A stretch of 64,000 bases of DNA from Anaerolineae bacterium (lineage in GTDB: Bacteria > Chloroflexota > Anaerolineae > B4-G1 > SLSP01). The translations under genes and the position numbers were made by a program. Where the stretch lies: positions 47,127 to 111,126 of the forward strand of contig JBNGCP010000002.1 in NCBI GenBank assembly GCA_049974845.1, read 5' to 3'. The stretch's first letter is position 1. Each line of letters opens with the position of its first letter. Positions 7,510-40,882 of this stretch are shown in pieces. A model generated the notes under the pieces. It worked only from the letters and a program-made list of their open reading frames with translations. It ran no database searches and was not told the DNA's origin.

Positions 7510-8559
7510 CTACAGTGGAAACGCGACCCGCCGGCCCTCACGAGCCGATTGGTATGCCCCCAACACCATCTCCACAGAGACGCGACCGTCCTCGGCCGTC
7601 ACCGGCGGAGGCGTATCATTCTTTATGCAGTCGACAAAAGACCGAGGCACCCCCGCGATGCGTTCTCCATGCCGAGCAGGGATGGGGATCCCAAGATCCT
7701 CCCAGCCTTCTCCTCCGCGCCGGAACAGCTTTAGCGCCGCAGCGTCCGGCGGCGCCAGATGTGTCGAGACAGCATCGTCGTAATTCTGAATCAACACGCC
7801 CTGATCGCCGTAGATCTCGGTGGTATTCTCACCGGCCAACGTGACCGAGGAGTTGACCAAGACGACCATCGCACCGCTGGCGTAGCGGTAGATAGCCACC
7901 CCGGTATCGTCTGGGGCGATATCGGTGATCGTGTTGTCAATCTCCGCCATCACACTGACCGGGCGCCCCATCACCCAATGGATGAAGTCTGTAGCGTGGG
8001 AGGCGTCGTCCATCCACATGCCCATGTTTTTCTCGGGATCAATATGCCAACTGGTAAGGCCGTTGACGAAGCTGTCGCTGAAGAGCACGGGGATGCAGTG
8101 GCGACGGCGCATCCAGGCGATGTTGCCGAGAACTCCTTCCTCGACCAGGGCCTTGATCTTCTGATTCGACGAATCGTGGCGCATCTGATAGGCCATCACG
8201 AACTTGACGCCAGCTTTGTCGGCGGCCTCCGCCATTCGATCGCAGTCCTCAAGCGTCAAGGCCATCGGCTTCTGACAGAGGATGTCCTTGCCTGCCTCCG
8301 CTGCAACAATCGCCATCTCCGGATGCCGATTCGTCTCGCACGTGACGATGACGCCCTGGATCTCAGGGTCATCGAGCACGTCCTCCAAATGCGGCGTGTA
8401 GCGCATCCCGTAGTTCTCAGCGGCTTCCTTGCCGCGCTCTTCGTTATCGTCCCAACAGGAGACCAGCTTCACGTCGTCATACGTGAGCATACGCTGGCAG
8501 TAGGCCTGGGAATGGCCGTGGGCAAAGCTGATCACACCAATACCGATAGGAACCGTCAT
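7510..8559 (-). CDS. Gfo/Idh/MocA family oxidoreductase
   Basis: N-terminal Rossmann IGIGVISFAHGH, AGKDILCQKPMA motif. Confidence 0.8.
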   Translation of the reverse strand: MTVPIGIGVISFAHGHSQAYCQRMLTYDDVKLVSCWDDNEERGKEAAENYGMRYTPHLEDVLDDPEIQGVIVTCETNRHPEMAIVAAEAGKDILCQKPMALTLEDCDRMAEAADKAGVKFVMAYQMRHDSSNQKIKALVEEGVLGNIAWMRRRHCIPVLFSDSFVNGLTSWHIDPEKNMGMWMDDASHATDFIHWVMGRPVSVMAEIDNTITDIAPDDTGVAIYRYASGAMVVLVNSSVTLAGENTTEIYGDQGVLIQNYDDAVSTHLAPPDAAALKLFRRGGEGWEDLGIPIPARHGERIAGVPRSFVDCIKNDTPPPVTAEDGRVSVEMVLGAYQSAREGRRVAFPL

Positions 8560-8563
8560 TATC

Positions 8564-9559
8564 TCACCTCACGTAGACGATAGAGTTAGTTTCGAGCGAT
8601 TCGATGGCCGCCTGTAGCACTTTCTGCGCAGCGAGGCCATCGGCCCCGGATGCGTCGATCTCCTCAGGGGCCACGCCGTCGCTCACCTGCTGCAGGAAGG
8701 TATGGATGCGGTTACGGAATGTATCTACGAAGTCACGGTGACCGCCGAAGACCGGATTCGTGTACTGGAGCTTCTCGAAGTCACCAGCCGGATAGAGCGT
8801 CACCTGTCGCCACATGTCCTCGAGGACGAAGCGGCCCTTGGTGCCCGCGACCTCACAGCGCTCCATAGGATGGCCACGCTCGATGTCGTAGGAGCCGCTG
8901 AGCGTGCCGACAGCGCCGTTCGCGAACTTCATGTTGAAGGAGGCCGTCGACCAGATCTGGCGCCCGGGCGCCTTCGTCGCAAAGCACTGCACCGCTTCGA
9001 CATCACCGCAGAAATGCCGCATCACGTCGACCGTATGCGGATGTAGCGACTTGATCATATAGTACGGCGAGCTCTCGTTCGGGTTCATGATCCACATCGC
9101 CATATTGACGAAGAGCAGATCGCCAAGGCGTCCCTCGCCCTGCCAGCGCTTGGCGATTTGTGCAGCCTCGGTGAAGCGGTGGTTCAGGTCAATACCGTAG
9201 CAGAGGCCCGTTTCTTTCGCCTTCGCGACCATTTCCTCGGCCTTCGGTATCTCATTGCAGATCGGCTTCTCGCCCAGAACGTGACAACCCGCTTCGAAGG
9301 CTTGCAGGGTCGGTTCGTAGTGATCACTACCATTCTCGAAACCCGCCGTTGCAATGCTGCAGACATCCGGCGAGAGAGCGTCGAGCATCTCCTGAGCATC
9401 GTAGAACGCCGGCACGCCGAACCGCGCGGCGGCGGCATCAGCCCGCTCTTTGATGATATCGCAAACCCCAACCAGATCCGCCAGCGGGTCCTCCTGATGA
9501 ATCATGGCATGGCGGTTCCCAATCGGTCCCATCCCAATCACAGCTACACGTAATGTCAT
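8564..9559 (-). CDS. Gfo/Idh/MocA family oxidoreductase
   Basis: VAVIGMGPIGNRHA Rossmann motif, GCHVLGEKPI motif. 4-nt gap from the upstream gene. Confidence 0.8.
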   Translation of the reverse strand: MTLRVAVIGMGPIGNRHAMIHQEDPLADLVGVCDIIKERADAAAARFGVPAFYDAQEMLDALSPDVCSIATAGFENGSDHYEPTLQAFEAGCHVLGEKPICNEIPKAEEMVAKAKETGLCYGIDLNHRFTEAAQIAKRWQGEGRLGDLLFVNMAMWIMNPNESSPYYMIKSLHPHTVDVMRHFCGDVEAVQCFATKAPGRQIWSTASFNMKFANGAVGTLSGSYDIERGHPMERCEVAGTKGRFVLEDMWRQVTLYPAGDFEKLQYTNPVFGGHRDFVDTFRNRIHTFLQQVSDGVAPEEIDASGADGLAAQKVLQAAIESLETNSIVYVR

Positions 9560-9645
9560 TGTGTCACTCCTTGTCTCGTGAGCGCGTTCCCGTCGAGACG
9601 TGTTGGAACATGCTCACGCTGGAACGTTCAAACGTCTTCACACGC

Positions 9646-10413
9646 CTATAACGACACAGCTTCGCACTGCTGACGTTTCGGCGCTTCCTCAGGGATCTCA
9701 TACCCATAGCGCGCCATCGCCGGTGCGAGAAAGTGGAAGTAGTTTGTGCCATCGTCCTGCTTCCAGCGGTCAACGGCCTCGGCGCGCACCGGTATCCGGG
9801 CCAACTCGATCCCGAGAAAGTCCTCAAGCTCGACCAGCGTCTCGTCCCGACGAAGGACGAAATCCTCGAAGCGTACCTCCAGGTAGTGCGCGGGCTTCGG
9901 CGTGGAGGCCACAAGGTCGTATTGGTACTTCCAGGAGATGGCACGGCGGCGGCGCTCATCGTCGGTCGGCGGATACTCCACGCCGAAGTCACGAAGGTCG
10001 TCGGTCAGATGACGCCCGAGGATGCAATCGCGGGGATTTCGGACCCAGTAGATGTATTTGGCCTCAGGAAAGAGCCGGATGATCCACGGCAGAACCAACG
10101 TGGTCTCCGGAAGCTTCCATCCTTTGTGCTCCGAAGAGCTTTTTAGAACGCTCCTGAGATAGCCATAGAGCAGGTCGGTGAACGCCTCGGGAATCTCCGC
10201 CTCTCGTGCCGCATCCCAGTTCCACTGTAGGTCACCTTCCCAGCTCACGTAGGAGCCGAAGACGCGACAGGCTTCATACATGTCGTGGGCCGGCACGAGA
10301 TCGCCGGACCGGTTGAGCAGCCCCCCCATATAGACGCCGCTGGCATAGAGAGTATGGGATATCGCGCGCGTCCCTGAATGCCCGCGACCGACAACGATAA
10401 TGATCGACGACAT
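9646..10413 (-). CDS. PAPS-dependent sulfotransferase family protein
   Basis: Start MSSIIIVVGRGHSGT (5'-phosphosulfate-binding loop, PKSGTT-like) preceded by AAGGAG. RNPRD 3'-phosphate-binding-like motif. The ORF-track N-terminal extension (Arg/Cys-rich) has no RBS and looks spurious. Confidence 0.7.
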   Translation of the reverse strand: MSSIIIVVGRGHSGTRAISHTLYASGVYMGGLLNRSGDLVPAHDMYEACRVFGSYVSWEGDLQWNWDAAREAEIPEAFTDLLYGYLRSVLKSSSEHKGWKLPETTLVLPWIIRLFPEAKYIYWVRNPRDCILGRHLTDDLRDFGVEYPPTDDERRRRAISWKYQYDLVASTPKPAHYLEVRFEDFVLRRDETLVELEDFLGIELARIPVRAEAVDRWKQDDGTNYFHFLAPAMARYGYEIPEEAPKRQQCEAVSL

Positions 10414-10501
10414 AAGGTAACTCCTTGCCCACAAAGTCCTTGGCCTGCAACGGGCTCTGATGCGGCGCCTTCGCTCTACTGAAGACGCCGCGCGCGCTCG
10501 T

Positions 10502-11626
10502 TCAGGCCAGCAGGACTGGATCCCCGTGCACCGTCGGCAGCGGATGCGGCTGCACCAACGCGCCACCGTTTTCGTAGGACTGCATCGCCGCCCACGTGTA
10601 TTCGAGGGTCGCTAACGCATCTCGCCCAGAGGCCCGCAGCTTGTCCTTGGCAACACCGTTGGTCACGTCCTCCAGGAACGCGTGAATCCGGCGCGGGAAC
10701 GTCTGGCTGAAGTCCGTGATGCCAGATTCGGTGACAACCGGCGTCGGCGAGGCGCCGAGCACCAGGTTCTCAGGCTGTGCCGCTCCCTCCGTCCCGGGGG
10801 TCGGGAAGAACGTCACCTTCTCGATACAGTTCTCAATGCAGAAGGTGCCGCGGGTACCGGCGACCTCGACGCTCCACCACCCACCCAGGCCAAACGTCGC
10901 ATCGCCCCGCTGGCTCAGTAGGTATCCCACCGCGCCGTTTTGGAACCGCATGTGGATGCTGTTGATCGACAACATCAGGTCGCCTGCCGCTTTCCGATAG
11001 CTCGGTCGGTCGAAGAAGGCCTGGATATGGGTCACATCGCCACAGAAATAGCGCATAATGCTGAAAGGGTGCGCGAGGAACGCCTTGACGTGGAAGTAGG
11101 GGAATCCCTTGGAGCGTGGCGCGCTGGAATAGCTATACGTCCGCTCGCCGCCGGGGAAACCCATCTTATGGAGACAGTAGACGAGCTCGCCGATCTGCCC
11201 GTTGTCCATATACTCGCGCGCCTTCTCCGCCGGGGGTGTGAAGTAGTGGTTGAGATTGCATCCCAGGTAGAGATCCTCCTCGAAGGCCTTGCGCACCATC
11301 TGGCGCGCCTCGCCGATGTCGTTGGAGATTGGCTTCTCTACCAAAACATGCTTTCCGGCCTCGAGCGCCTGCATCACCGGCTCAAAATGCCAGCTCCCAT
11401 TCTCGTAGCCGCCGGTCGTGACGTCGACCACGTCCAGCTCCTCATTCCGCAGCATATCCTCGAGGTCGTAGTAGGCCGGAACGCCGTACTTCTCGGCCGC
11501 GTCATCGGCGCGCTCCTTGACGACGTCACAGACCGCCACCAACTTCGACAAAGGATCCTGGATATGCGCCTGAGCATGCGTATTCCCGATGCCTCGCATG
11601 CCCACTAATCCAACTCTAAGAGCCAT
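10502..11626 (-). CDS. Gfo/Idh/MocA family oxidoreductase
   Basis: Real start MALRVGLVGMRGIGNTHA at 11626 with GGAGGA upstream. The 185-aa ORF-track N-terminal extension is Arg/Ser-rich low-complexity and spurious. GKHVLVEKPI motif. Confidence 0.8.
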   Translation of the reverse strand: MALRVGLVGMRGIGNTHAQAHIQDPLSKLVAVCDVVKERADDAAEKYGVPAYYDLEDMLRNEELDVVDVTTGGYENGSWHFEPVMQALEAGKHVLVEKPISNDIGEARQMVRKAFEEDLYLGCNLNHYFTPPAEKAREYMDNGQIGELVYCLHKMGFPGGERTYSYSSAPRSKGFPYFHVKAFLAHPFSIMRYFCGDVTHIQAFFDRPSYRKAAGDLMLSINSIHMRFQNGAVGYLLSQRGDATFGLGGWWSVEVAGTRGTFCIENCIEKVTFFPTPGTEGAAQPENLVLGASPTPVVTESGITDFSQTFPRRIHAFLEDVTNGVAKDKLRASGRDALATLEYTWAAMQSYENGGALVQPHPLPTVHGDPVLLA

Positions 11627-13412: not shown

Positions 13413-14309
13413 ATGACCGAACAACGCGTGCTCAACGACTCATATTTCTCGGAGCCAGATCTTCCCCTGGCGATGCAGCATACCCATCAGCCGGACCTCG
13501 TCCATCATATGCACACGTTCATCGAGCTCGTCATGGTGGTGGAAGGCAGTGGCACCCACGTCTTTGAGTCCGAGCGCTATCCTATCACGGTTGGTGACGT
13601 CTTCGTCATCCCACCCTATACGCCCCACGGCTATGAAAACACCAGGGATCTCGCCATCTACAACATCCTCTTCAAGGAGGAGATGCTCGCGAGGTACCAG
13701 AGCGAGTTGGAGCTGATCCCCAGCTTCCACGGGCTAATCTATCTGGAGCCCTACTACCGGTCGGTCCGCGACTTCGCCGGACGCCTGACCCTCACGCCGG
13801 AGCAGATCGTGCAGGCCACTTCGCTTATCACACGGCTCGAGCACGAGAGCAAGCATCGCCTCGAAGGCCGGAGGATCATGGTCGAGACCCTCTTTGTCGA
13901 GCTGCTCCTCTTCTACTGCCGCAGATTCTCGGAGAACACGGGATCCTCAACACGGGTCATGCCGGTGGCGCGAGCGATTGGGTACATGAACCAGCGCTTC
14001 GCCGAGCCCATCTGCCTCGACGACCTCGTCAAGGTCTCGGGGCTCTCCAAGCGCAGTCTGATCCGGCACTTCAAGAACACCACCGGCTTCACGCCGATCC
14101 ATTACCTGCAAAAGGTGAGGGTGGCCAAAGCGTGTGCGATGCTCGAGCAGGACGACCAGTCGGTCACCCGCACGGCCCTCGACGCCGGCTTCAACGATCC
14201 CTCCTACTTTTCCACGGTCTTCCGAAGGCATACAGGCGTCACGCCCAGCCAGTACGCGAGGACGCGCGGCACTGAAGGCTTCGATGGCTCAGCAGGCAGT
14301 AGGAAGTAG
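13413..14309 (+). CDS. AraC family transcriptional regulator (cupin sensor domain plus C-terminal HTH)
   Basis: C-terminal AraC HTH pattern (LSKRSLIRHFKNTTGFTPIHYLQKVRVAKA...DAGFNDPSYFSTVFRRHTGVTPSQY). Divergent from the sulfatase/oxidoreductase locus. Confidence 0.85.
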   Translation: MTEQRVLNDSYFSEPDLPLAMQHTHQPDLVHHMHTFIELVMVVEGSGTHVFESERYPITVGDVFVIPPYTPHGYENTRDLAIYNILFKEEMLARYQSELELIPSFHGLIYLEPYYRSVRDFAGRLTLTPEQIVQATSLITRLEHESKHRLEGRRIMVETLFVELLLFYCRRFSENTGSSTRVMPVARAIGYMNQRFAEPICLDDLVKVSGLSKRSLIRHFKNTTGFTPIHYLQKVRVAKACAMLEQDDQSVTRTALDAGFNDPSYFSTVFRRHTGVTPSQYARTRGTEGFDGSAGSRK

Positions 14310-14373
14310 GATAGGAGATGAGAAGAAGCGAGGCAACGCTGCGGCGCAACGCTACTCCTTACTACCCTACTCC

Positions 14374-14910
14374 CTACTCCTGCTGATGGCTGAAGGCCGT
14401 GAACCCCAACTCCTTGTACCAGTCGACGTCATTGCCGGTGGCGTAGCAATAGATGCGGTCCTTCTGGGGCCCGCCCAAGAGCCGGTAGACGGGCTGCTCC
14501 AGCAGCTTGCCCTTGAGGTCCCATAGCGCCAGATCGATGGCGCTGATCGCATAGGAGGCCAGACCTGTCGATCCGTAAGGCTTGGTCATCCGGAACATCA
14601 TATCGGCGAGCTTATCCGTCGCCAGGCAGTCCTCACCCACCAGCTGCGACGCCAGGTGCTCGACAACCGGCGTGACCACCTCGGCGGAGCTCAGCGTGCC
14701 CAGCCCCCACGTGCCGTCCTCAGCCACGACCTGAACCCAGGCACCTTCCCACCGCGGTAGCCACAGACTGCGGTGCCGCTTCACCTTGGCGTAGCGTGAC
14801 ATGGGGTTGGCGACCTCGGCCCCCGCCGCCCAGCGGGGCCGTCGAGGCATCGTGCGGCTCTCCTTTGACGGTAGGTCAACTCGAACCGTACGGATGTCCG
14901 TGATCTTCAT
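14374..14910 (-). pseudogene. Truncated enolase-superfamily (mandelate racemase/muconate lactonizing enzyme) gene: N-terminal capping domain only
   Basis: MKITDIRTVRV...AISAIDLALWDLKGKLLEQPVYRLLGG is homologous to the N-termini of the intact enolases at 25514 and 39813. It ends after about 179 aa, against about 380-410 aa for intact members. The 3' end abuts the araC stop across a short microrepeat. Confidence 0.55.
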
Positions 14911-14929
14911 AGATACCCTCCCCTCATCA

Positions 14930-15076
14930 CTATTCGGTTGAGCGCGCTTCTGCAATCATCGCCTGCCGCGCCCGCAGCTTGCGTTCGACCTGACGGCGAC
15001 GCCAGGCAATGGAAACCGCCAGGCCCAGCGGGACAGTACAGAAGATCGCGTAGGCCAGGCCAAGATGGATCAGCAT
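14930..15076 (-). CDS. ccmD: Haem exporter protein CcmD (small single-TM protein)
   Basis: Not in the ORF track. A 48-codon ORF, ATG 2 nt after the ccmC stop with GGAGGAGG upstream. MLIHLGLAYAIFCTVPLGLAVSIAWRRRQVERKLRARQ: one TM helix followed by a basic tail, typical of CcmD. Confidence 0.6.
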   Translation of the reverse strand: MLIHLGLAYAIFCTVPLGLAVSIAWRRRQVERKLRARQAMIAEARSTE

Positions 15077-15078
15077 CG

Positions 15079-15777
15079 CTACACCTCCTCCCGCGTTAAG
15101 ACGTCATCCAGTGCCGCCAGTCGATCCCGAGCACGCTCCAAGGCGATGCGTTGCCGGAGCAGGGCCCCGTAGACGAGGGTAAAGGCCGCGATTGCAGCCA
15201 GGAGTGTGTGGAGCATGCGGGGCGTCAAGGCCATCTCTCCGCCTGCCAGAATCTGCGGATGTATCGTGCGCCACCACCGGATCGCAAACCAAGAGAGCGG
15301 GACGGTGACGAAAGCGAGCACACCGTAGACGGCAGCAAAGCGCGCGACCCGTTCCCCGTGCACCGTCGACGCGCGAAGCATCACATAAGCCACGTAGAGC
15401 AACCACTGCACCGCGGAGATCGTCAATCGGGGCTCCCATGTCCAGTACGTGCCCCAGACAGGCTTGGCCCACAAAGAACCTGTGACAACGGCCATCGTGA
15501 TAAAGGCAAGCCCGATCTCTGCGGAGGAAAGACTGAGGATGTCCCACTGCCGGCGTCCCTGCACAAGGTAGAGCACGCCTGCGACGAAAGTCACGAAGAA
15601 CGCAAAGAAACCGATCCACGCGGAGGCGACGTGGAAGTAGAAGATCCGCTGTATCTCCCCCATCGTCGCCTCGCGCGGCGCATAGGCAAAGACCATCACC
15701 AGAGCCACAGCAAACGCAGCGACACTGACAATGCTCAATAACCGGCCTGCCAACTGCTCTGGTCGCCTGCTATCCAT
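15079..15777 (-). CDS. ccmC: Haem exporter protein CcmC
   Basis: WWD domain WGTYWTWEPRLT, conserved His-containing loops, about 6 TM helices. GGGAGG RBS. Confidence 0.9.
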   Translation of the reverse strand: MDSRRPEQLAGRLLSIVSVAAFAVALVMVFAYAPREATMGEIQRIFYFHVASAWIGFFAFFVTFVAGVLYLVQGRRQWDILSLSSAEIGLAFITMAVVTGSLWAKPVWGTYWTWEPRLTISAVQWLLYVAYVMLRASTVHGERVARFAAVYGVLAFVTVPLSWFAIRWWRTIHPQILAGGEMALTPRMLHTLLAAIAAFTLVYGALLRQRIALERARDRLAALDDVLTREEV

Positions 15778-15856
15778 AGAACCTCCCAGCGCTCACGCTG
15801 CTCACGCAACGCGCGCTCAACCACCGCTCCGGGAATCCGCATCGATCATGACTTCC

Positions 15857-16528
15857 CTAGACCTCCACGACATATTCGAAGGTGAGCACCGAGACAGCCG
15901 TCATGACCAAATCGTAGACCACCAGAATCCGTATCCAGGCGCCCATCTCCCCCAATGGCAGCCCCTCCAGCAGCCCCGCCGTGGCTCTGGCAGCCGCGAT
16001 CAGCAGGGGAACCACGAGCGGCAGCAGGAGAATCGGCAACATCACCTCTCTGGCCCGCGTGTTGACAGCGATCGCAGCGAGCAGTGTACCGACCACAGCA
16101 TAACCAATCGTCCCCAGGACCAGCACCCAGATAATTCCTGCCCTGATCAGGCTGATGTTGAAGAAAACCGTTCCCAGCGGCAGGAGGACGATTTCCACAA
16201 GGAACATCAGAACCAGGTTGCCCAGCGCTTTACCAAAGAAGATCACGATGCGATCCGCCGCCGCGAGCAACAACCCGGACATGCCTCCACTGTGGTGCTC
16301 TCGGGCCATCGACCGGCTGAGGCCAAGCGTCCCGGAGAAGGCAATCGTCGTCCAAAGAACGCCCGGTGCTGCAGCCTTTCCAGCGGCCCCACGAAGATCG
16401 AGCGCAAAACTGAAGCTGAGGATCGCGATGATCGCGAAGACGAACATAGCGCTCAGGATCTCCCGGGTGTGGAGTTCAGCAGCTAGGTCCTTGTGCACGA
16501 TCGCGCCGATCTGACGGAGGCTATCCAT
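15857..16528 (-). CDS. ccmB: Haem exporter permease CcmB
   Basis: CcmB-like 6-TM permease, 223 aa from the internal Met (MDSLRQIGAIVHKDL). The longer ORF-track start would overlap ccmA by about 90 nt. Confidence 0.8.
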   Translation of the reverse strand: MDSLRQIGAIVHKDLAAELHTREILSAMFVFAIIAILSFSFALDLRGAAGKAAAPGVLWTTIAFSGTLGLSRSMAREHHSGGMSGLLLAAADRIVIFFGKALGNLVLMFLVEIVLLPLGTVFFNISLIRAGIIWVLVLGTIGYAVVGTLLAAIAVNTRAREVMLPILLLPLVVPLLIAAARATAGLLEGLPLGEMGAWIRILVVYDLVMTAVSVLTFEYVVEV

Positions 16529-17285
16529 CGTGTCCCCGCTCAGCGAAGCCACGCGAGGAAAGGGGCTCGCGCAGCAGCTCCCGATACCGGGCAGGAAAGG
16601 CCGCGGCATCTCCCAGCGACTCGTCGGTGATGATCCGACCCCTGCGCAAAACGATCACCCGCTCGGCCAGTCGCCCCTCGGCAGCCGGTTGATGGGTGGT
16701 CAACAGCAGCGTGCAGCCTGCGTCCACCAGCTCTGCGAGCAACTCAGTAAGGGTATCGACCGCGAGCGGATCCAACCCTGTGTAAGGCTCGTCTAGAAGC
16801 AGCAGCCTCGGCTTATGGATCAGCGCCCGCACGACGGCGAGGCGCTGCTGCATCCCGCGCGAAAACGTCCGAACCAGATCGTGGCGACGTCCCTCCAGCC
16901 CGACGCGGGTCAACAGCCCATCAATCCCGGCATGTTCCGGCGCCAACCCATACATCGTGGCGTAGAACCGCAGATTCTGCCACGCGGTGAGATCGTCATA
17001 GAGGAGCGTCTCGTGCGAGACGAAGCCGATCAACGAACGCACCTGCCCTCCCGCCACCCCAGGGTCCAAGCCGGAGATCCGCACGGTCCCGGCAGTGGGG
17101 CGGCTCAGCGTCGCCAGAATGCGCAGCAGCGTAGTCTTACCGGCGCCATTGGGACCGACGAGCATCACGCGCTCGCCCTCCTCGATAGCGAGGTCGACCC
17201 CGGCAAGCGCGACGTGAGGGCCAAAACGCTTCTCCAGCCCGTGGACCCGGATCACACGTGGCGGCCCTCCGCCCGACCCATCCAC
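16521..17285 (-). CDS. ccmA: Haem exporter ATP-binding protein CcmA (ABC ATPase)
   Basis: Walker A GPNGAGKTT, ABC signature FSRGMQQRL, Walker B LLLLDEP. Confidence 0.9.
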   Translation of the reverse strand: MDGSGGGPPRVIRVHGLEKRFGPHVALAGVDLAIEEGERVMLVGPNGAGKTTLLRILATLSRPTAGTVRISGLDPGVAGGQVRSLIGFVSHETLLYDDLTAWQNLRFYATMYGLAPEHAGIDGLLTRVGLEGRRHDLVRTFSRGMQQRLAVVRALIHKPRLLLLDEPYTGLDPLAVDTLTELLAELVDAGCTLLLTTHQPAAEGRLAERVIVLRRGRIITDESLGDAAAFPARYRELLREPLSSRGFAERGHDG

Positions 17286-18248
17286 TTACTCGCGACCACA
17301 CGACACTCCGCACTCATCCCAGCCCCCGCCGCCAACGTAATCCTGCAGCCGAGCTTTGAGCGCCTGCCGCTCCTCCAGATACGCGGCCTCTGACACCTCA
17401 CCCGCAGCATACCGCACGTCCAATTCCGCCATCGCCGTCACCGCCCGTCTTGCGCCCTCCGGCACGCGAGGAAGCGGCGGCGACCGCCAGAGCATCGCCG
17501 CAAGCCCTGCCCCGGCCAACACGGCGCCGGTACCCACAGCGATCTCGATCCCCACGGGAGGGCCTGCCGATGCTGCCACGGGACGCGCCTCCATTCCCTC
17601 GGCAACGGCACCAGAAGCGGGCGATCCGGGCACGAGCTGAAAGGCGACCGCCTCGCCGGCGGCAAGCGGATCGCCCCTGTAGGCGACCGCCGTCTGCCCC
17701 CCTACCTCCATCGGACCCATCGACGTCAGCCCCGGCCCCTCAAGCTGCCAGGCCTCGCCGACCAACAGGATCACGATGGAATGCACCGCCAGCGGAACGG
17801 TGCGGGAGATGGTTTCACGCGGCACCAGAGGCAGATCGTAGAGGAACCGCGTCTCCACCGTCCCGACCCCAGGCGAGATCGGTCGCGTGTCCGCAATAGA
17901 GTTCGCGCCAAGCCGGTATCGGTCGGGGGCCTCCGCGCTCTCGTCGACCCTGACGTTGGTAGCCTCCCTAGGCAGCGAGAAGACGACGGTCACGCCCTCC
18001 CCCGGGCCCTCTGACAGGCCAGTGTAGACCGTATCCCCGGTGTTGCCCAAAAGATAGTACTCAGATATCGTCAGGGTTTCCTCAGCCGGAAAGAGAAAGA
18101 GGTGCAACTGATCGATCACCGGGCCGCCATCGGGTTGCGGCTGGGCGAGGGTCGGCTGTCCCGTGCGTGCGCCGAGAAACCCAACGATCAACAGCACCAG
18201 ACCGGCCCATCGCAGACGGTGGAGACGAGAGGACCTATCCCGCTGCAT
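17286..18248 (-). CDS. Hypothetical membrane-anchored protein (signal peptide/anchor, extracytoplasmic domain, C-terminal TM and SHOCT-like tail) embedded in the ccm operon
   Basis: Hydrophobic N-terminus, Gly/Ala-rich TM near the C-terminus, then ELDVRYAAGEVSEAAYLEERQALKARL (SHOCT-like). Its stop abuts the ccmA start. Confidence 0.5.
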   Translation of the reverse strand: MQRDRSSRLHRLRWAGLVLLIVGFLGARTGQPTLAQPQPDGGPVIDQLHLFLFPAEETLTISEYYLLGNTGDTVYTGLSEGPGEGVTVVFSLPREATNVRVDESAEAPDRYRLGANSIADTRPISPGVGTVETRFLYDLPLVPRETISRTVPLAVHSIVILLVGEAWQLEGPGLTSMGPMEVGGQTAVAYRGDPLAAGEAVAFQLVPGSPASGAVAEGMEARPVAASAGPPVGIEIAVGTGAVLAGAGLAAMLWRSPPLPRVPEGARRAVTAMAELDVRYAAGEVSEAAYLEERQALKARLQDYVGGGGWDECGVSCGRE

Positions 18249-18254
18249 CCCGAC

Positions 18255-18515
18255 CTAGTCCTCCACCAGCCGAGCCCCGCAGTGGGGACAGTATCGGTGC
18301 TCGGGTTTGACCGGCTGGCCACATTGGTGGCAGAAGCCAGCCGAATCGACAGCGGCCGCGCGTCCTTCGCCCTGCTGCAGCGCACGTCGCTCGCGCGCGA
18401 CCCACGCCTCGATCAGAGCGTCGGCGTCCGTCGTTCCGCGACGAAAGGGCAACGCTACGTAGGCCGTCAGCACGATCAGCGTCCCCACCCCAATCAGCAG
18501 CGCCCCAATAGTCAT
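18255..18515 (-). CDS. Small membrane protein with C-terminal zinc-ribbon (CxxC...CPHC), embedded in the ccm operon
   Basis: N-terminal TM helix. FCHQCGQ...YCPHCGARL four-Cys ribbon. Confidence 0.5.
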   Translation of the reverse strand: MTIGALLIGVGTLIVLTAYVALPFRRGTTDADALIEAWVARERRALQQGEGRAAAVDSAGFCHQCGQPVKPEHRYCPHCGARLVED

Positions 18516-18520
18516 CGTCT

Positions 18521-20989
18521 TCAGTCTCCCAGGAGTGAGTCCAACTGCGCTGTCAGCTCCACCTGTGACACCGCGCCCACGTACACTGCCGCCACCTGTC
18601 CCTGAGCATCGATCACGAAGGTCTCCGGAACCTTGGTGACGCCATAGGCCTGGGCCGCAAGGTCGGAGGCATCAAGTCCGATGGGATAGCTCAATCCATA
18701 GGCCGACGCGATCTCCTCGACCGCCGCCCTGTCCGAATCGTAGGCAACACCCACGAACACGACACCCGCGCCCTGGTACGCTTCCCAGGATGCCTGCAGA
18801 TCAGGTAGCTCGTCCTTGCAGGTGGGGCACCAGGGAGCCCAGAAGTTGAGCACGACGACTTGTCCTCGCAAGTCGCTCAGCGCCAGCGCGTCCCCGCTCA
18901 GCGAAGAGAGCCGAAACTCGGGCGCCGCGTGACCGACGTGAGGGCGACCCAACGCCTTCACAGCCGTCCCGTGCCGCGCGCCCCACATCGCCCAGGCGCC
19001 CCCCGCCAGCAAGCCCACGATGACCATCGCAGCCACCGCGTTCCACGCGCCGGCAAGCCCCCTGGGCCAGAGCGCCAGCGCGCCGCCTGCCAGGAACACG
19101 AGCCCGCCCAGCCAGAGGAAATTCGCGAGGGCGTTGATCAGGATCCTGACGGTGATCGTCGTGCCGTCGCCACTCCAACCAGCCAGGATCACATAAAGAT
19201 CCTCACGCAGGGCAGGGCGCAGCGCCGGCACCGAGAACGTCTGCTCGTAGTTCTGATAGCGGTTGACCCGTGGCTCCAGCGTGACCAGATACTCATCCTC
19301 ACCATAGACACTGAGGCTGGCCCACGTGCTGAGATGGTCGCCGACCATCTCTTGCGAAAGCAGATCGAACACGAGCGTGTACTCTCCGATCTCGATCGGC
19401 TCGCCGGACGCCATCACCATCTCCTGTTCAAAGGGATAGAGGCGTGTCCCAATGACACCCACGGCCATGAATATCACGCCGAGATGGACGAGATATCCAC
19501 CATACTTGCGCCGCTGCGTCCGCAGCAGGTCCCAGAGCGCGTTCAGAGGCGCGAGATCGGTGCGTCGGCTTCGTTGTGCGACGCCCTCTCCGTACTCAAT
19601 CAGGACGGTCGTCGCGGATAGACCCACCAGCCCAAAGGCGATTAGCGACACCGGTTTGTCAAATCCAGCCACGAGCGCCGCCCCGACCGCCACGAGCGCA
19701 CCGAGGGCAATCAGCCACGCCCGGCGCTTCAGGCGACGCACCGTTGCAGCTGCACGACCCAGGAGCGGGCACACGCCAATGAGCAGGATCAGAAGGGCAA
19801 ACTGCGGCCCGGTGACGCGGTCAAACCACGCCGGACCAGCCTCAAACTGCTGCCCCAACGCCAGATCTGTGATCGTCGGGAGCACGCTGCCCACAAAGAC
19901 GGACAGCGTCAACGTCATAAATACGAGCAACGTGAGGAAGAAGGCGCCATCGCGGGACAGGAGCGGCGGCTCTGAAGATGCAGAGCTGAGGTCAGCGCTC
20001 CGCCACAGGATCAGACCCACGCTGACACCGAGGGATGCCAGAATACCGGCGAGATAATAGCCGCCAAGGTTTGACACCGCGTAAGCGTGGACCGACTGAA
20101 TGGCGCCGCTGCGGGTGGCGAAGGTGCCAAAGAGCACCAGCACGAAGGAGAGAGTCACGAGGACGTAGTTCCAAACCCGGAAGCCGCGTCGTTCCTCCTG
20201 CATGACGGCGCCGTGCAGCAACGCCGTCGTCGTAAGCCAGGGCATCAACCCAGCGTTCTCCACCGGATCCCATCCCCAGTAGCCTCCCCATCCCAGGACG
20301 TCATAGGCCCACCGCATGCCCAGCAACAACCCGAGGCTAAGACCGATCCACGCGACCAAGGTCCAGGGATGGACCACACGGGTCCAGAAGCGATCATTCT
20401 TGGTGATCAGCGCAGCGAGCGCAAAGGCGAACGGCACCGACAGGCCGACATACCCGACGTACATCGCCGGCGGATGGAAGATCATGCCCGGGTGACGCAG
20501 CAGCGGATTGAGGCCCTGACCGTCGGTGAGGGGCCGCGGAAGCTGGGTAAAGGGGTTGGAAAGCCACAGCATCGCCCCGACAAAAAGGGCCCCGATCAGC
20601 CCCAAGACGACCGTCGCCCACGGGATTAGAGGGGCGGCGCGCTCATCACGGATGCGGATGGCGAGCGCCGTGAAGACCGCCTGGAAGAAGCACCATAGCA
20701 ACAGAGAGCCCTCTTGACCGGCCCAGATCGCCGACAGCTTCAAGTAGATTGGCAGGGCTTGCGAGGAATGCTGGGCAACGTAGCGAATGCCGTAGTCTCC
20801 GCTGAGGAAGGCCTCTGTCAAAGCAATAAGGGCCAACCCCAGCAGCGCCGCTGCGCCGTACAGAGCGTTACGGGCGCTCTGCCACCACCTAACGTCTCGC
20901 CGGTAGATGCTGATGGCGCTCGCCAGAGCGCCATAGAGGGTCGCGGCCCACGCCAGGCCACTGAAGACCGTCCCGAGGTCCGCTAACAC
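18521..20989 (-). CDS. ccmF: Cytochrome c-type biogenesis protein CcmF fused to a C-terminal TlpA/CcmG(DsbE)-like thioredoxin domain
   Basis: CcmF WWD motif WGGYWGWDPVENAGLMPW over a multi-TM body of about 650 aa. C-terminal roughly 170 aa carry VVLNFWAPWCPTCKDELP (thioredoxin CxxC). The chosen GTG start at 20989 sits 1 nt after the ccmE stop with GAGGA upstream. The alternative ATG at 21055 overlaps ccmE by 64 nt. Confidence 0.85.
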   Translation of the reverse strand: MLADLGTVFSGLAWAATLYGALASAISIYRRDVRWWQSARNALYGAAALLGLALIALTEAFLSGDYGIRYVAQHSSQALPIYLKLSAIWAGQEGSLLLWCFFQAVFTALAIRIRDERAAPLIPWATVVLGLIGALFVGAMLWLSNPFTQLPRPLTDGQGLNPLLRHPGMIFHPPAMYVGYVGLSVPFAFALAALITKNDRFWTRVVHPWTLVAWIGLSLGLLLGMRWAYDVLGWGGYWGWDPVENAGLMPWLTTTALLHGAVMQEERRGFRVWNYVLVTLSFVLVLFGTFATRSGAIQSVHAYAVSNLGGYYLAGILASLGVSVGLILWRSADLSSASSEPPLLSRDGAFFLTLLVFMTLTLSVFVGSVLPTITDLALGQQFEAGPAWFDRVTGPQFALLILLIGVCPLLGRAAATVRRLKRRAWLIALGALVAVGAALVAGFDKPVSLIAFGLVGLSATTVLIEYGEGVAQRSRRTDLAPLNALWDLLRTQRRKYGGYLVHLGVIFMAVGVIGTRLYPFEQEMVMASGEPIEIGEYTLVFDLLSQEMVGDHLSTWASLSVYGEDEYLVTLEPRVNRYQNYEQTFSVPALRPALREDLYVILAGWSGDGTTITVRILINALANFLWLGGLVFLAGGALALWPRGLAGAWNAVAAMVIVGLLAGGAWAMWGARHGTAVKALGRPHVGHAAPEFRLSSLSGDALALSDLRGQVVVLNFWAPWCPTCKDELPDLQASWEAYQGAGVVFVGVAYDSDRAAVEEIASAYGLSYPIGLDASDLAAQAYGVTKVPETFVIDAQGQVAAVYVGAVSQVELTAQLDSLLGD

Positions 20990-20990
20990 G

Positions 20991-21470
20991 TCAGTCCTCG
21001 ACCTGCTCGGGAAGATCCTCAGCGTACTTGGAGGGACACTTAAGAAGGAGATCATCCGCGTAGAAGATGCCGTCCGCCCTCAACTGACCGCGGACAATCG
21101 CTTGCGCCTCGCTCTTGAGGAGATCAGGCTTTACCCCATCATAGGTGACCTGCAGTCGCGATCTGGATGGATCCTGAACCGCAGTACGTAGAACGCCGGC
21201 AAGCCCATCCGCCGCCTCGATCGCCTCAAGATCCCCCGGTATCTGTACCATCGTGAAGGTGACCCGGGGCGCGCTCTGATCATACTCAATGGTCTCGCCG
21301 ATGACAGCACCGGAGACGGTGAGCCTGCGCCCTTGCGCATCGGCACCTAACGCCTCAAGCTCCTCAATCGTCATGAAGAAGCTCGCGGTGCTTCCCGTGT
21401 TGCTGGCTATCAGGTAGATCACCGCAGTAATGATGAGAACACCTGCGATGAGGAAACTGCGTTTCTGCAT
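20991..21470 (-). CDS. ccmE: Haem chaperone CcmE, archaeal-type variant with CPSKY (Cys) haem-binding motif
   Basis: N-terminal TM anchor, OB-fold region (RLTVSGAVIGETIEYD...RVTFTM), and C-terminal KCPSKYAE in place of the canonical HxxxY. Confidence 0.8.
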   Translation of the reverse strand: MQKRSFLIAGVLIITAVIYLIASNTGSTASFFMTIEELEALGADAQGRRLTVSGAVIGETIEYDQSAPRVTFTMVQIPGDLEAIEAADGLAGVLRTAVQDPSRSRLQVTYDGVKPDLLKSEAQAIVRGQLRADGIFYADDLLLKCPSKYAEDLPEQVED

Positions 21471-21742
21471 CAAACACACTCCATCACCACGATATCAGTC
21501 GAATCAGGAAAAGCCCTGCTCGATCGCAGCCTGTATCAGGATACACGAGTAGTATACGAGTGTCACCCGGTGAGGCAACCTGCTGTTCGGGCTAGGGCAG
21601 TCGCAGTTGGCACCAAAGCGCCATCGGCATGACGAAGGCAAAGGTGCTGAACCTAGCTGCGATGATCCTCCCCTCAGCCTGGAACGCTAGTCTGGCACAC
21701 AGTACGCATGCAGAATAGCGTAGATAAGTGTATACTTAATAG

Positions 21743-21988
21743 GAGAAACATGAGCACGTCACCATCTCCGTGGAATACGACAATCAAGGTGTGCATCTAC
21801 GGATCGCGGATGACGGTGTCGGGTTCGTCCCGGCTTCGCACGGGGACGCCTACACACGCCAGGGACACTTCGGCCTTGTCGGTCTTCAGGAGCGGGTGCG
21901 TCAACTCGATGGCACCTTTGATTTCAGCACCGAGCCTGGCGAGGGAACCGTCCTCGACGTCTGGCTGCCCGATCATTCGTCATCGTGA
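21743..21988 (+). pseudogene. Remnant of a NarL/HisKA_3-type sensor histidine kinase (HATPase_c C-terminal domain only)
   Basis: In-frame ...VTISVEYDNQGVHLRIADDGVGF...GHFGLVGLQERVRQLDGTFDFSTEPGEGTVLDVWLP (G1/G2 boxes). It begins right after an in-frame stop. There is no dimerisation/His domain upstream and no response-regulator gene nearby. Confidence 0.55.
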
Positions 21989-22180
21989 CACCCCGGGAGG
22001 CTGACCGCCTCTCCCAGCAAGTGACGGAGCCTATAGCGCGGATGTGGTACAAGCACACAGCACACGACCCCACACCGACCTGCCATCTCGTGCGATTAGC
22101 CTGGGCCATCCCCGCCAAATAGCGGTGCCCGCCTCAGACCGTATAGCTCTCCACATCAGCCCACCCCTCGGGTACAGTGG

Positions 22181-39813: not shown

Positions 39814-40081
39814 AGAACGCGTCCTCCATGTTGCAGTGGGTTAACTAAAGAATCGGCCATCAACGTCATGGCGTCGACCAGCGACGCAGATTCTCCTTCA
39901 CAAGAGCACCATCGTTCAGCACCCAGGAAGCTCCACCCAGCATACACCGAAGCAATGAGGTCACAAGATACACAAGGAGCCGGCGCTTGATGTCCTGGAC
40001 ATACGACGTATACTAGGAGATTGAGCGATGCGTGCGCGGCCTATGGCCTGCGCCCTTACAAGAGGAGCGACAGAGAAGGAT

Positions 40082-40882
40082 ATGAGCGAACCGTTGAATC
40101 CAGCGCCATCCAGCGAGGAACGCCAGGTGAAGTCGATGAGCGTCGCCGCTATCGACGGCACGCCTGTCGCATACATCGTGAGTCTTGCCGCAGTGGTAGC
40201 CGTCCTCGCGATGATCCCCATCCCCATCTCCGTGGTCCTGGGATCGGGCAGGAACTTTCCGATGAGCCAGAGCATCTATCCGCTGGTGGGTTGGCTGCTC
40301 GGACCGATCGCCGGTGCGCTTGCCGATGGAATCGGAGCTCTGATCGGCGTCATCATCGCCCCACATACCACAAGCTCTGCACCGGCCACGATCTTCGGTG
40401 CAGCGATGGGTGGACTTGCCGCCGGCGCGATGGTAAACTCCGGCGCTCGTCGCTATTGGTGGATTCCGCTTTCGCTCCTTTTCGCAGGGTTGTACGTTCT
40501 GTATGCAGGCCGCGCCGTCTGGGTGAACCAGGTCAGTTGGACCAGCGTCTTGCTGGGTTCTTTCATCAACTGGTCCGCCCTGTTGCTGTTCGTCTTGCCC
40601 ACCCGAACCGTTCTGGCCGGATTCCTTCAGGCCTCAGAGATGAAAAGAGTTGGCGCAGGTCTCTTTGTCGGTACCTGGATGATCGCGGGGCTCGTTCATC
40701 TGAGCACCGGGGCGATTGTCTACACGATCATCAACTGGCCAAATGAGCTCTGGTTGGCCATAGCACCTCTGGCACCCATCGAGCACCTGATCCGCTGCAT
40801 CGCCGGCACGGGGATCGGCCTCGGGGTGATCGGCGGTCTGCGAGCCACGGGGCTGGTGAAACCCCTTCACGCGCGCTATTAG
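40082..40882 (+). CDS. Multi-TM membrane protein, possibly a transporter substrate-binding component (ECF S-component-like); function uncertain
   Basis: Six to seven predicted TM helices rich in Gly/Ala. ATG 40082 preceded by GAGAAGGA. Confidence 0.45.
   Translation: MSEPLNPAPSSEERQVKSMSVAAIDGTPVAYIVSLAAVVAVLAMIPIPISVVLGSGRNFPMSQSIYPLVGWLLGPIAGALADGIGALIGVIIAPHTTSSAPATIFGAAMGGLAAGAMVNSGARRYWWIPLSLLFAGLYVLYAGRAVWVNQVSWTSVLLGSFINWSALLLFVLPTRTVLAGFLQASEMKRVGAGLFVGTWMIAGLVHLSTGAIVYTIINWPNELWLAIAPLAPIEHLIRCIAGTGIGLGVIGGLRATGLVKPLHARY

Follow-up and report, generated by a model that had tools for sequence, protein, structure and literature searches.

The window, by which we mean the whole stretch of 64,000 nucleotides that was analysed (Anaerolineae bacterium, GenBank assembly GCA_049974845.1, contig JBNGCP010000002.1, positions 47,127 to 111,126), carries on its minus strand a cytochrome c maturation (ccm) operon in which the gene for the haem lyase CcmF runs without interruption into sequence encoding a thioredoxin domain resembling ResA and CcmG (Table 1). 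The longest version of this open reading frame (ORF) in the ORF list spans 18521..21055 on the minus strand and encodes 844 aa from an ATG at 21055. This upstream start was dismissed because it would overlap ccmE by 65 nt and because the homologues all begin at the GTG at 20989, which coincides with the N-terminus of 116 of the 116 aligned homologues. The GTG sits 1 nt past the ccmE stop codon (...GAG GAC TGA c GTG TTA GCG GAC...). Homologue alignments and nucleotide sequence thus agree on a protein of 822 aa, and with the span 18521-20989 given in a preliminary description of the locus. The same description had proposed a single polypeptide comprising CcmF and a thioredoxin in a continuous reading frame. 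The frame across the junction is indeed unbroken in the assembled nucleotide sequence, and the one ORF contains Pfam domains of both parts: the domain search that had been suggested returned PF01578, PF16327, AhpC-TSA and Redoxin, all above their gathering scores.

The N-terminal part was assigned to CcmF by sequence and by fold. Cytochrom_C_asm (PF01578) matched residues 89-294 (E 3.7e-34; 118.7 bits for a gathering cutoff of 29.9) and CcmF_C (PF16327) matched residues 317-641 (E 7.3e-41; 140.9 bits for a cutoff of 28.7), while a PDB sequence search aligned residues 5-644 with the Thermus thermophilus CcmF structure 6ZMQ (E 2.5e-92). The NCBIfam model TIGR00353 stayed below its trusted cutoff (397 versus 569 bits), with positions 1-574 of its 578 covered; since this match spans the full model length, the fused CcmF is a divergent member of the family and not a partial one. 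The WWD motif that had been claimed is present (WGGYWGWDPVENA). His172, His259, His301 and His502 align respectively with the P-His1, TM-His1, P-His2 and TM-His2 columns of 6ZMQ and are invariant in 117 sequences; in naming them as ligands we assume equivalence with H173, H261, H303 and H491 of Escherichia coli CcmF. An AlphaFold2 (AF2) model was computed from the 117-sequence alignment (mean predicted local distance difference test score, pLDDT, 87; predicted template modelling score, pTM, 0.83). Its core consists of 15 transmembrane (TM) helices, with a beta-rich domain (residues 519-620) inserted between TM14 and TM15 (623-639), and was superposed on 6ZMQ by Foldseek with E 4.7e-28 and a TM-score of 0.88 normalised to the target. 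The assignment of this part to CcmF is thus supported by sequence and by the predicted fold.

Beyond TM15, the AF2 model shows a 7-residue loop, an extra helix (TM16, residues 647-670) and, after some 20 linker residues, a thioredoxin fold (693-821). The loop between TM15 and TM16 is Arg-rich in other fused members (...PEARRRAVG..., ARRRRRVRAGR) and therefore fits a cytoplasmic location. The beta-domain is periplasmic in CcmF, so that TM15 would end in the cytoplasm and TM16 would return the chain to the periplasm. The thioredoxin domain is accordingly predicted to lie in the periplasm, on the side of the membrane that also bears the WWD/P-His haem-ligation site. Two Pfam families matched this domain above gathering scores, AhpC-TSA at residues 685-801 (E 2.7e-28) and Redoxin at residues 685-808 (E 8.9e-25), and in the PDB sequence search ResA and other TlpA-like thioredoxins matched residues 686-809. 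Foldseek aligned the C-terminal domain with oxidised ResA (1ST9) at a TM-score of 0.94 and a root-mean-square deviation of 1.1 A. The active-site string FWAPWCPTCKDE announced in the preliminary description was found in the ORF, with Glu727 at position +3 from the CxxC and the cis-Pro P788 within VPETF (787-791). We take the combination of WCxxC, Glu at +3 and cis-Pro VPETF to be characteristic of ResA and CcmG. The label of a TlpA/CcmG-type domain therefore holds as far as the thioredoxin fold is concerned, which Pfam and AF2/Foldseek both recover; within this fold, NCBIfam scores lie nearer to ResA than to DsbE or TlpA, and none reaches an equivalog cutoff. The last 179 aa align with the free-standing thioredoxin of an unfused ccm operon (locus L011) over both the anchor and the fold (37% identity, E 3e-36), and TM16 appears to be the N-terminal membrane anchor of CcmG, retained in the fusion. 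This alignment to a free-standing operon CcmG and the predicted periplasmic topology both support the earlier proposal that CcmG is tethered at the haem-ligation face of CcmF, a reading that we regard, on the strength of the model, as well founded.

The survey for the same fusion in relatives that had been proposed was carried out on homologue clusters drawn from NCBI, JGI, ENA and Logan assemblies. Among the 120 best homologue clusters, 118 are fused (54-100% identity; 814-879 aa where complete), and one of the two exceptions is annotated as partial. A fused orthologue is also found in the cultured Pelolinea submarina (WP_116224918.1 / UniRef100_A0A347ZQR1, 45% identity). Altogether 117 homologues with 54-82% identity, originating from independent assemblies, carry the fusion, and in the 117-sequence alignment the WWD motif, W669 in the extra helix, W717, C721, C724, P788 and E789 are invariant. 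That an error of sequencing or assembly has joined two genes, through a missing stop codon or a shifted frame, is of negligible probability in our estimation, and this explanation was rejected because the same fusion recurs in independent assemblies and in the genome of cultured P. submarina. It would also have to account for an identical protein in a separate record (MGC9520311.1, from an Anaerolineae metagenome-assembled genome, MAG), for full-length fused homologues in many assemblies including that of a cultured isolate, and for a junction that leaves no space for a ccmG start of its own, the linker from TM15 to the anchor being only about 8 residues long. We conclude from these sequences that this is a genuine gene fusion, probably maintained by selection and fixed in a whole clade of Anaerolineae. 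Among the top 150 CcmF relatives in a library clustered at 50% identity, about five clusters are full-length fusions (P0121, P0122, P0124, P0125 and P0174), and the fused family is thus a narrow clade rather than a common architecture.

Table 1. Coordinates in the window of the fused gene, its parts and the other genes of the ccm operon.
Feature	Coordinates	Strand	Details	Basis
ccmF::ccmG fusion ORF	18521..20989	minus	822 aa; start codon GTG, stop codon TGA (18521-18523)	
CcmF haem-lyase core	19064..20989	minus	residues 1-642	Pfam, 6ZMQ, invariant columns, AF2, Foldseek
WWD haem-handling motif	20252..20290	minus	WGGYWGWDPVENA, residues 234-246	invariant in homologues
Short cytoplasmic loop (predicted) and TM16	18980..19063	minus	loop PRGLAGAWN; about residues 647-670	AF2 helix, hydropathy, L011 CcmG anchor alignment
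ResA/CcmG-like thioredoxin domain, periplasmic (predicted)	18524..18937	minus	residues 685-822	Pfam, NCBIfam, PDB, Foldseek
Redox-active C721-P-T-C724	18818..18829	minus	WCPTC, residues 720-724; Cys codons 18827-18829 and 18818-18820	
ccmE, Cys-type haem chaperone	20991..21479	minus	LKCPSKY	Pfam PF03100, motif
TM and zinc-ribbon protein	18255..18515	minus	86 aa	position conserved among Anaerolineae ccm operons with and without the fusion
Membrane protein with SHOCT-like C-terminal helix	17286..18248	minus	320 aa	no Pfam family
ccmA, ABC ATPase	16521..17285	minus		Pfam
ccmB	15857..16609	minus		Pfam
ccmC	15079..15777	minus		Pfam
CcmD-like single-TM ORF	14930..15076	minus	48 aa	PF04995, E 6.3e-5, 23.4 bits versus cutoff 25.6

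The gene order around the fusion was compared with that of other ccm loci in a scan of GTDB species-representative genomes, which yielded a sample of at least 80 CcmF loci; profiles of the CcmF core, of the thioredoxin domain and of CcmH were mapped on the six frames of every locus. Among the loci listed, 43 unfused ones, mostly from Anaerolineales, display the order ccmE-ccmF-ccmH-trx, usually followed by the zinc-ribbon gene, the membrane protein gene and ccmA-ccmB-ccmC. Locus L011 is an example, with ccmF at 8001-10046, ccmH (LYCPVC) at 10056-10535 and an anchored thioredoxin of 190 aa (WASWCGPC) at 10532-11104. The window and nine fused loci (L001-L003, L081-L085 and L089, the latter from Pelolinea) share instead the order ccmE-ccmF::trx-zinc ribbon-membrane protein-ccmA-ccmB-ccmC-(small ccmD-like ORF). 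The CcmH profile matched in 64 of the 80 unfused loci listed; it matched in none of 10 fused loci, and the 64-kb window gave no match in any of its six frames; ccmH may be absent from the whole genome. The two operon types are collinear, with homologous flanking genes, save for the loss of ccmH and the joining of its neighbours. This collinearity makes a deletion of ccmH the most likely origin of the fusion. Starting from an ancestral ccmE-ccmF-ccmH-ccmG arrangement, one deletion would have removed ccmH together with the C-terminal tail of CcmF and the N-terminal tail of CcmG and would have joined the remainders in frame. In a neighbour-joining (NJ) tree of the CcmF core, fused sequences cluster together, separately from the ccmF-ccmH-ccmG operons, with the unfused L017 among them. 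A minimal operon type, ccmE-F-A-B-C-D without CcmH, thioredoxin or accessory genes, was also encountered in L019, L035, L043 and L048, and the presence of minimal operons in close relatives suggests a stepwise reduction.

A second fusion of the same two genes was found in a different context. At L090 (8001-10511, JGI 3300008952; cluster P0174, 35% identity) the operon reads ccmA-B-C-D-E-F::G-ccmH-ccmI, with a His-type CcmE (VKHSNEY); here ccmF and ccmG were neighbours already, and ccmH and ccmI are kept directly downstream of the fused gene. The CcmF::CcmG fusion thus arose at least twice and, because this fused operon keeps ccmH, fusion does not by itself entail the loss of ccmH. Other ccm genes are joined as well. 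Clusters P0148, P0153 and P0202 (825-928 aa) end in a CcmH domain (PF03918) instead of a thioredoxin, and at L055 (8001-10487) and L012 (86-2587) CcmF and CcmH share one stop-to-stop frame; all five look like natural CcmF::CcmH fusions. A CcmA::CcmB fusion of 479-497 aa (ABC_tran plus CcmB) is present at L081 (14407-15900), L084 (13987-15441) and, in P. submarina, L089 (13890-15329), unlike the window, where ccmA and ccmB are separate genes. The joining of neighbouring ccm genes is a recurrent theme.

Two further loci from the scan deserve a separate mention. L091 (8001-10364, GCA_034432595.1) encodes a fused CcmF::Trx of 787 aa (48% identity) outside any recognisable ccm operon: the upstream gene encodes a 178-aa protein with a PAPPA-domain match only, and no ccmABC lies within 8 kb. 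At L050 (7770-10585, an Armatimonadetes MAG), a trx ORF directly precedes ccmF, with which it overlaps in a different frame, so that the order is trx-ccmF-ccmH. The pieces had been merged by tblastn as residues 33-819; the genes are here either arranged in another order or, possibly, joined in an N-terminal fusion that carries a frameshift.

The CcmE of the window bears CPSKY (LLLKCPSKYAED) and not the haem-binding HxxxY, and CcmE is of this Cys type (CxxxY) in every related locus in which the motif was found, including loci that keep ccmH and ccmG. The 320-aa membrane protein corresponds to the C-terminal half of a 655-aa homologue in L011 (E 2e-24), the N-terminal half of which contains two CxxCH motifs. 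Both the zinc-ribbon gene and the 320-aa gene keep this place in Anaerolineae operons whether or not ccmF is fused, but are missing from the minimal operons, and their uncharacterised products may be accessory factors of cytochrome c maturation. The CcmD-like ORF after ccmC is easily overlooked by gene callers; small ORFs of 39-60 aa occupy the same position in L081, L083, L084, L086 and L089. Beside the operon, a 193-aa ORF (14374-14955, minus strand, TTG start) matches only PF02746 (mandelate racemase/enolase N-terminal domain) and looks, from its sequence, like a truncated or fragmentary gene. The AT skew of the plus strand is unusually high (0.16-0.20) over 14001-22000, which contains the ccm operon, and fits T-rich membrane-protein codons on the minus strand. 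As to potential substrates, no CxxCH motif occurs in any window ORF of at least 100 aa. One candidate for a CcdA/DsbD reductant carrier, at 40028-40882 (about 5 TM helices, 2 Cys), was not accepted, having no Pfam match; the other candidates matched MscS or PMT_2.

We found no published description of a CcmF fusion with CcmG, TlpA or thioredoxin, nor of Anaerolineae Ccm, in the full-text literature searched, where matches to 'CcmFG' proved to be 'CcmFGH'. In public records, the fused proteins go by general labels, for instance 'CcmF C-terminal domain-containing protein' and 'cytochrome c biogenesis protein CcsA', an annotation that leaves the thioreductase half overlooked. The components themselves are well known. 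The fused protein resembles CcmF/NrfE (6ZMQ) in its WWD motif, its four His, its 15 TM helices, its periplasmic beta-domain and the location of its gene after ccmE; it differs by an added TM helix and a 140-residue C-terminal thioredoxin fold, and its partner CcmE is of the Cys type. With CcmG/DsbE and ResA it shares a single N-terminal anchor followed by a thioredoxin fold (predicted to be in the periplasm), the Glu at +3 and the cis-Pro, and its WCPTC contains the same CxxC as E. coli CcmG; in contrast to these proteins, its anchor is continuous with TM15 of CcmF and not part of a separate polypeptide, and it scores below both equivalog cutoffs. A CxxxY CcmE (here CPSKY) marks System I*, which is carried by Desulfovibrio, archaea and some Chloroflexi and Firmicutes (PMC3601427; Allen 2006, Goddard 2010). 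No ccmH lies in the present operon; a third of Cys-type systems do possess CcmH (Stevens 2011, PMC3601427). System I* of Desulfovibrio has neither CcmH nor CcmG; the window, by contrast, keeps CcmG, fused to CcmF, and its operon contains two further conserved genes, for the zinc-ribbon protein and the 320-aa membrane protein. Finally, CcsBA of Helicobacter, CcmH-CcmI of E. coli and CcmF::CcmH likewise unite interacting operon neighbours in one chain, with an added or retained TM helix that preserves topology, but in the present case the joined partner is the thioreductase CcmG. The novelty lies in the way the domains are combined and in the association of this arrangement with the loss of ccmH in a Cys-type System I.

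We consider it probable that the tethered domain is the CcmG of this operon, that it reduces the CxxCH of apocytochrome at CcmF and that it is recharged by an unlinked CcdA/DsbD. This reading is based on the WCPTC/Glu727/VPETF signature, on the ccm operons in which the unfused orthologue is found and on the strict conservation of the active site. TM16 would cross the membrane back and hold the thioredoxin, on its linker of about 20 residues, at the periplasmic face beside the WWD/P-His site, where the WCPTC dithiol would reduce the CxxCH disulfide of apocytochrome immediately before CcmF acts. CcmF would then make the two thioether bonds with haem brought by the Cys-type CcmE, and the oxidised CxxC would be re-reduced by the CcdA/DsbD-type membrane reductant carrier. 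The redox function and the direction of electron flow in this scheme are inferred. In an AF2Complex model of E. coli CcmFGH, CcmG sits on CcmF close to the haem site (PMC8975832), an arrangement consistent with the fusion of two proteins that interact. Several observations weigh against our reading. The thioredoxin part remains below the NCBIfam cutoffs for ResA (NF002854, 107.9 versus 170 bits) and DsbE (TIGR00385, 64.7 versus 123 bits), as it does for TlpA (NF047696, 39.1 versus 230 bits), and because no family cutoff is reached, a role in cytochrome maturation is assigned to it from its context. Neither the window nor the flanks of 8-10 kb (shorter at contig ends) around other fused genes yielded a CcdA/DsbD partner. 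P0123 (56% identity) and L017 encode ccmE-ccmF-ccmABCD without any thioredoxin and, in the NJ tree, which carries no support values, the unfused L017 nests within the fused group; because such close relatives have no thioredoxin, the domain would seem to be dispensable in some lineages.

Other explanations of the fusion were weighed against this one. The tethered thioredoxin may have taken over the job of CcmH, the CxxC-bearing subunit that usually binds CcmF and deals with the apocytochrome, so that one polypeptide would be a complete synthase plus thioreductase; we regard this as a tentative possibility, clearly short of even chances. In its favour, ccmH has disappeared from the very point at which the two genes are joined, in an operon that is collinear in all other respects; a further argument is the contrast between the fused loci and the window, all devoid of a CcmH match, and the unfused loci, most of which have one; moreover, System I* without CcmH and CcmG is functional (PMC3601427, Stevens et al. 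2011; Goddard et al. 2010). The operon with the His-type CcmE at L090 nevertheless retains ccmH and ccmI, which shows fusion and loss of CcmH to be separable and weakens the idea that the fusion necessarily replaces CcmH, and the minimal relatives have neither protein, so that CcmH may be simply dispensable in Cys-type systems. Methanosarcina can do without ccmG and ccdA as long as conditions are reducing (PMC9084895). A stronger version, in which deletion of ccmH and tethering of CcmG were one event and the protein's own thioredoxin reduces and presents the apocytochrome in place of CcmH, seems to us rather unlikely, though compatible with the data.

We give a similarly low probability to neutral compaction of the operon, whereby CcmG would work as usual, ccmH would lie elsewhere or be unneeded, and linkage would provide nothing but equal stoichiometry. 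Fusions of neighbouring genes do recur without evident novelty, as illustrated by CcmF::CcmH, CcmA::CcmB and CcmH::CcmI of E. coli (PMC3601427), but the present one persists in a clade in which identity has fallen to about 45%; its active site is invariant, its anchor helix is conserved, and it arose at least twice. Long retention and repeated origin suggest some advantage of proximity. A further alternative, in our opinion quite improbable, is that the domain serves another purpose, either reducing the copper centres of Sco/CoxB in the manner of TlpA or, like a peroxiredoxin, protecting haem or the thiol of the Cys-type CcmE. AhpC-TSA is the best Pfam family, there is no equivalog-level match to CcmG or ResA, and the cysteine of CcmE could itself need keeping reduced. 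However, the nearest structures and families are ResA and CcmG, which are cytochrome-maturation reductases, the active-site signature agrees with what we take to be typical of these two proteins, and the unfused orthologue adjoins ccmH inside ccm operons.

The reading of the tethered domain as the CcmG of its operon bears on two debates. In System I, the reductant has been proposed to reach the apocytochrome straight from CcmG or to be relayed via CcmH (PMC3601427; Verissimo 2017, cited in PMC10663686). The second debate concerns a possible physical association of CcmG with the CcmF/H synthase, for which there is only a computed CcmFGH model (PMC8975832). A conserved natural CcmF::CcmG fusion provides 'Rosetta-stone' evidence for CcmF and CcmG acting in contact, and the loss of ccmH alongside the fusion in the Anaerolineae clade suggests that the relay can be bypassed. 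If the thioredoxin has indeed replaced CcmH, these organisms would represent a natural experiment in which a direct route from CcmG to apocytochrome, without a CcmH relay, suffices, and the fused protein would be a single-polypeptide target for structural capture of the long-sought complex of synthase, thioreductase and substrate. The presence of the fusion in cultured P. submarina could make it a handy single-chain construct for cryo-electron microscopy (cryo-EM) or heterologous reconstitution.

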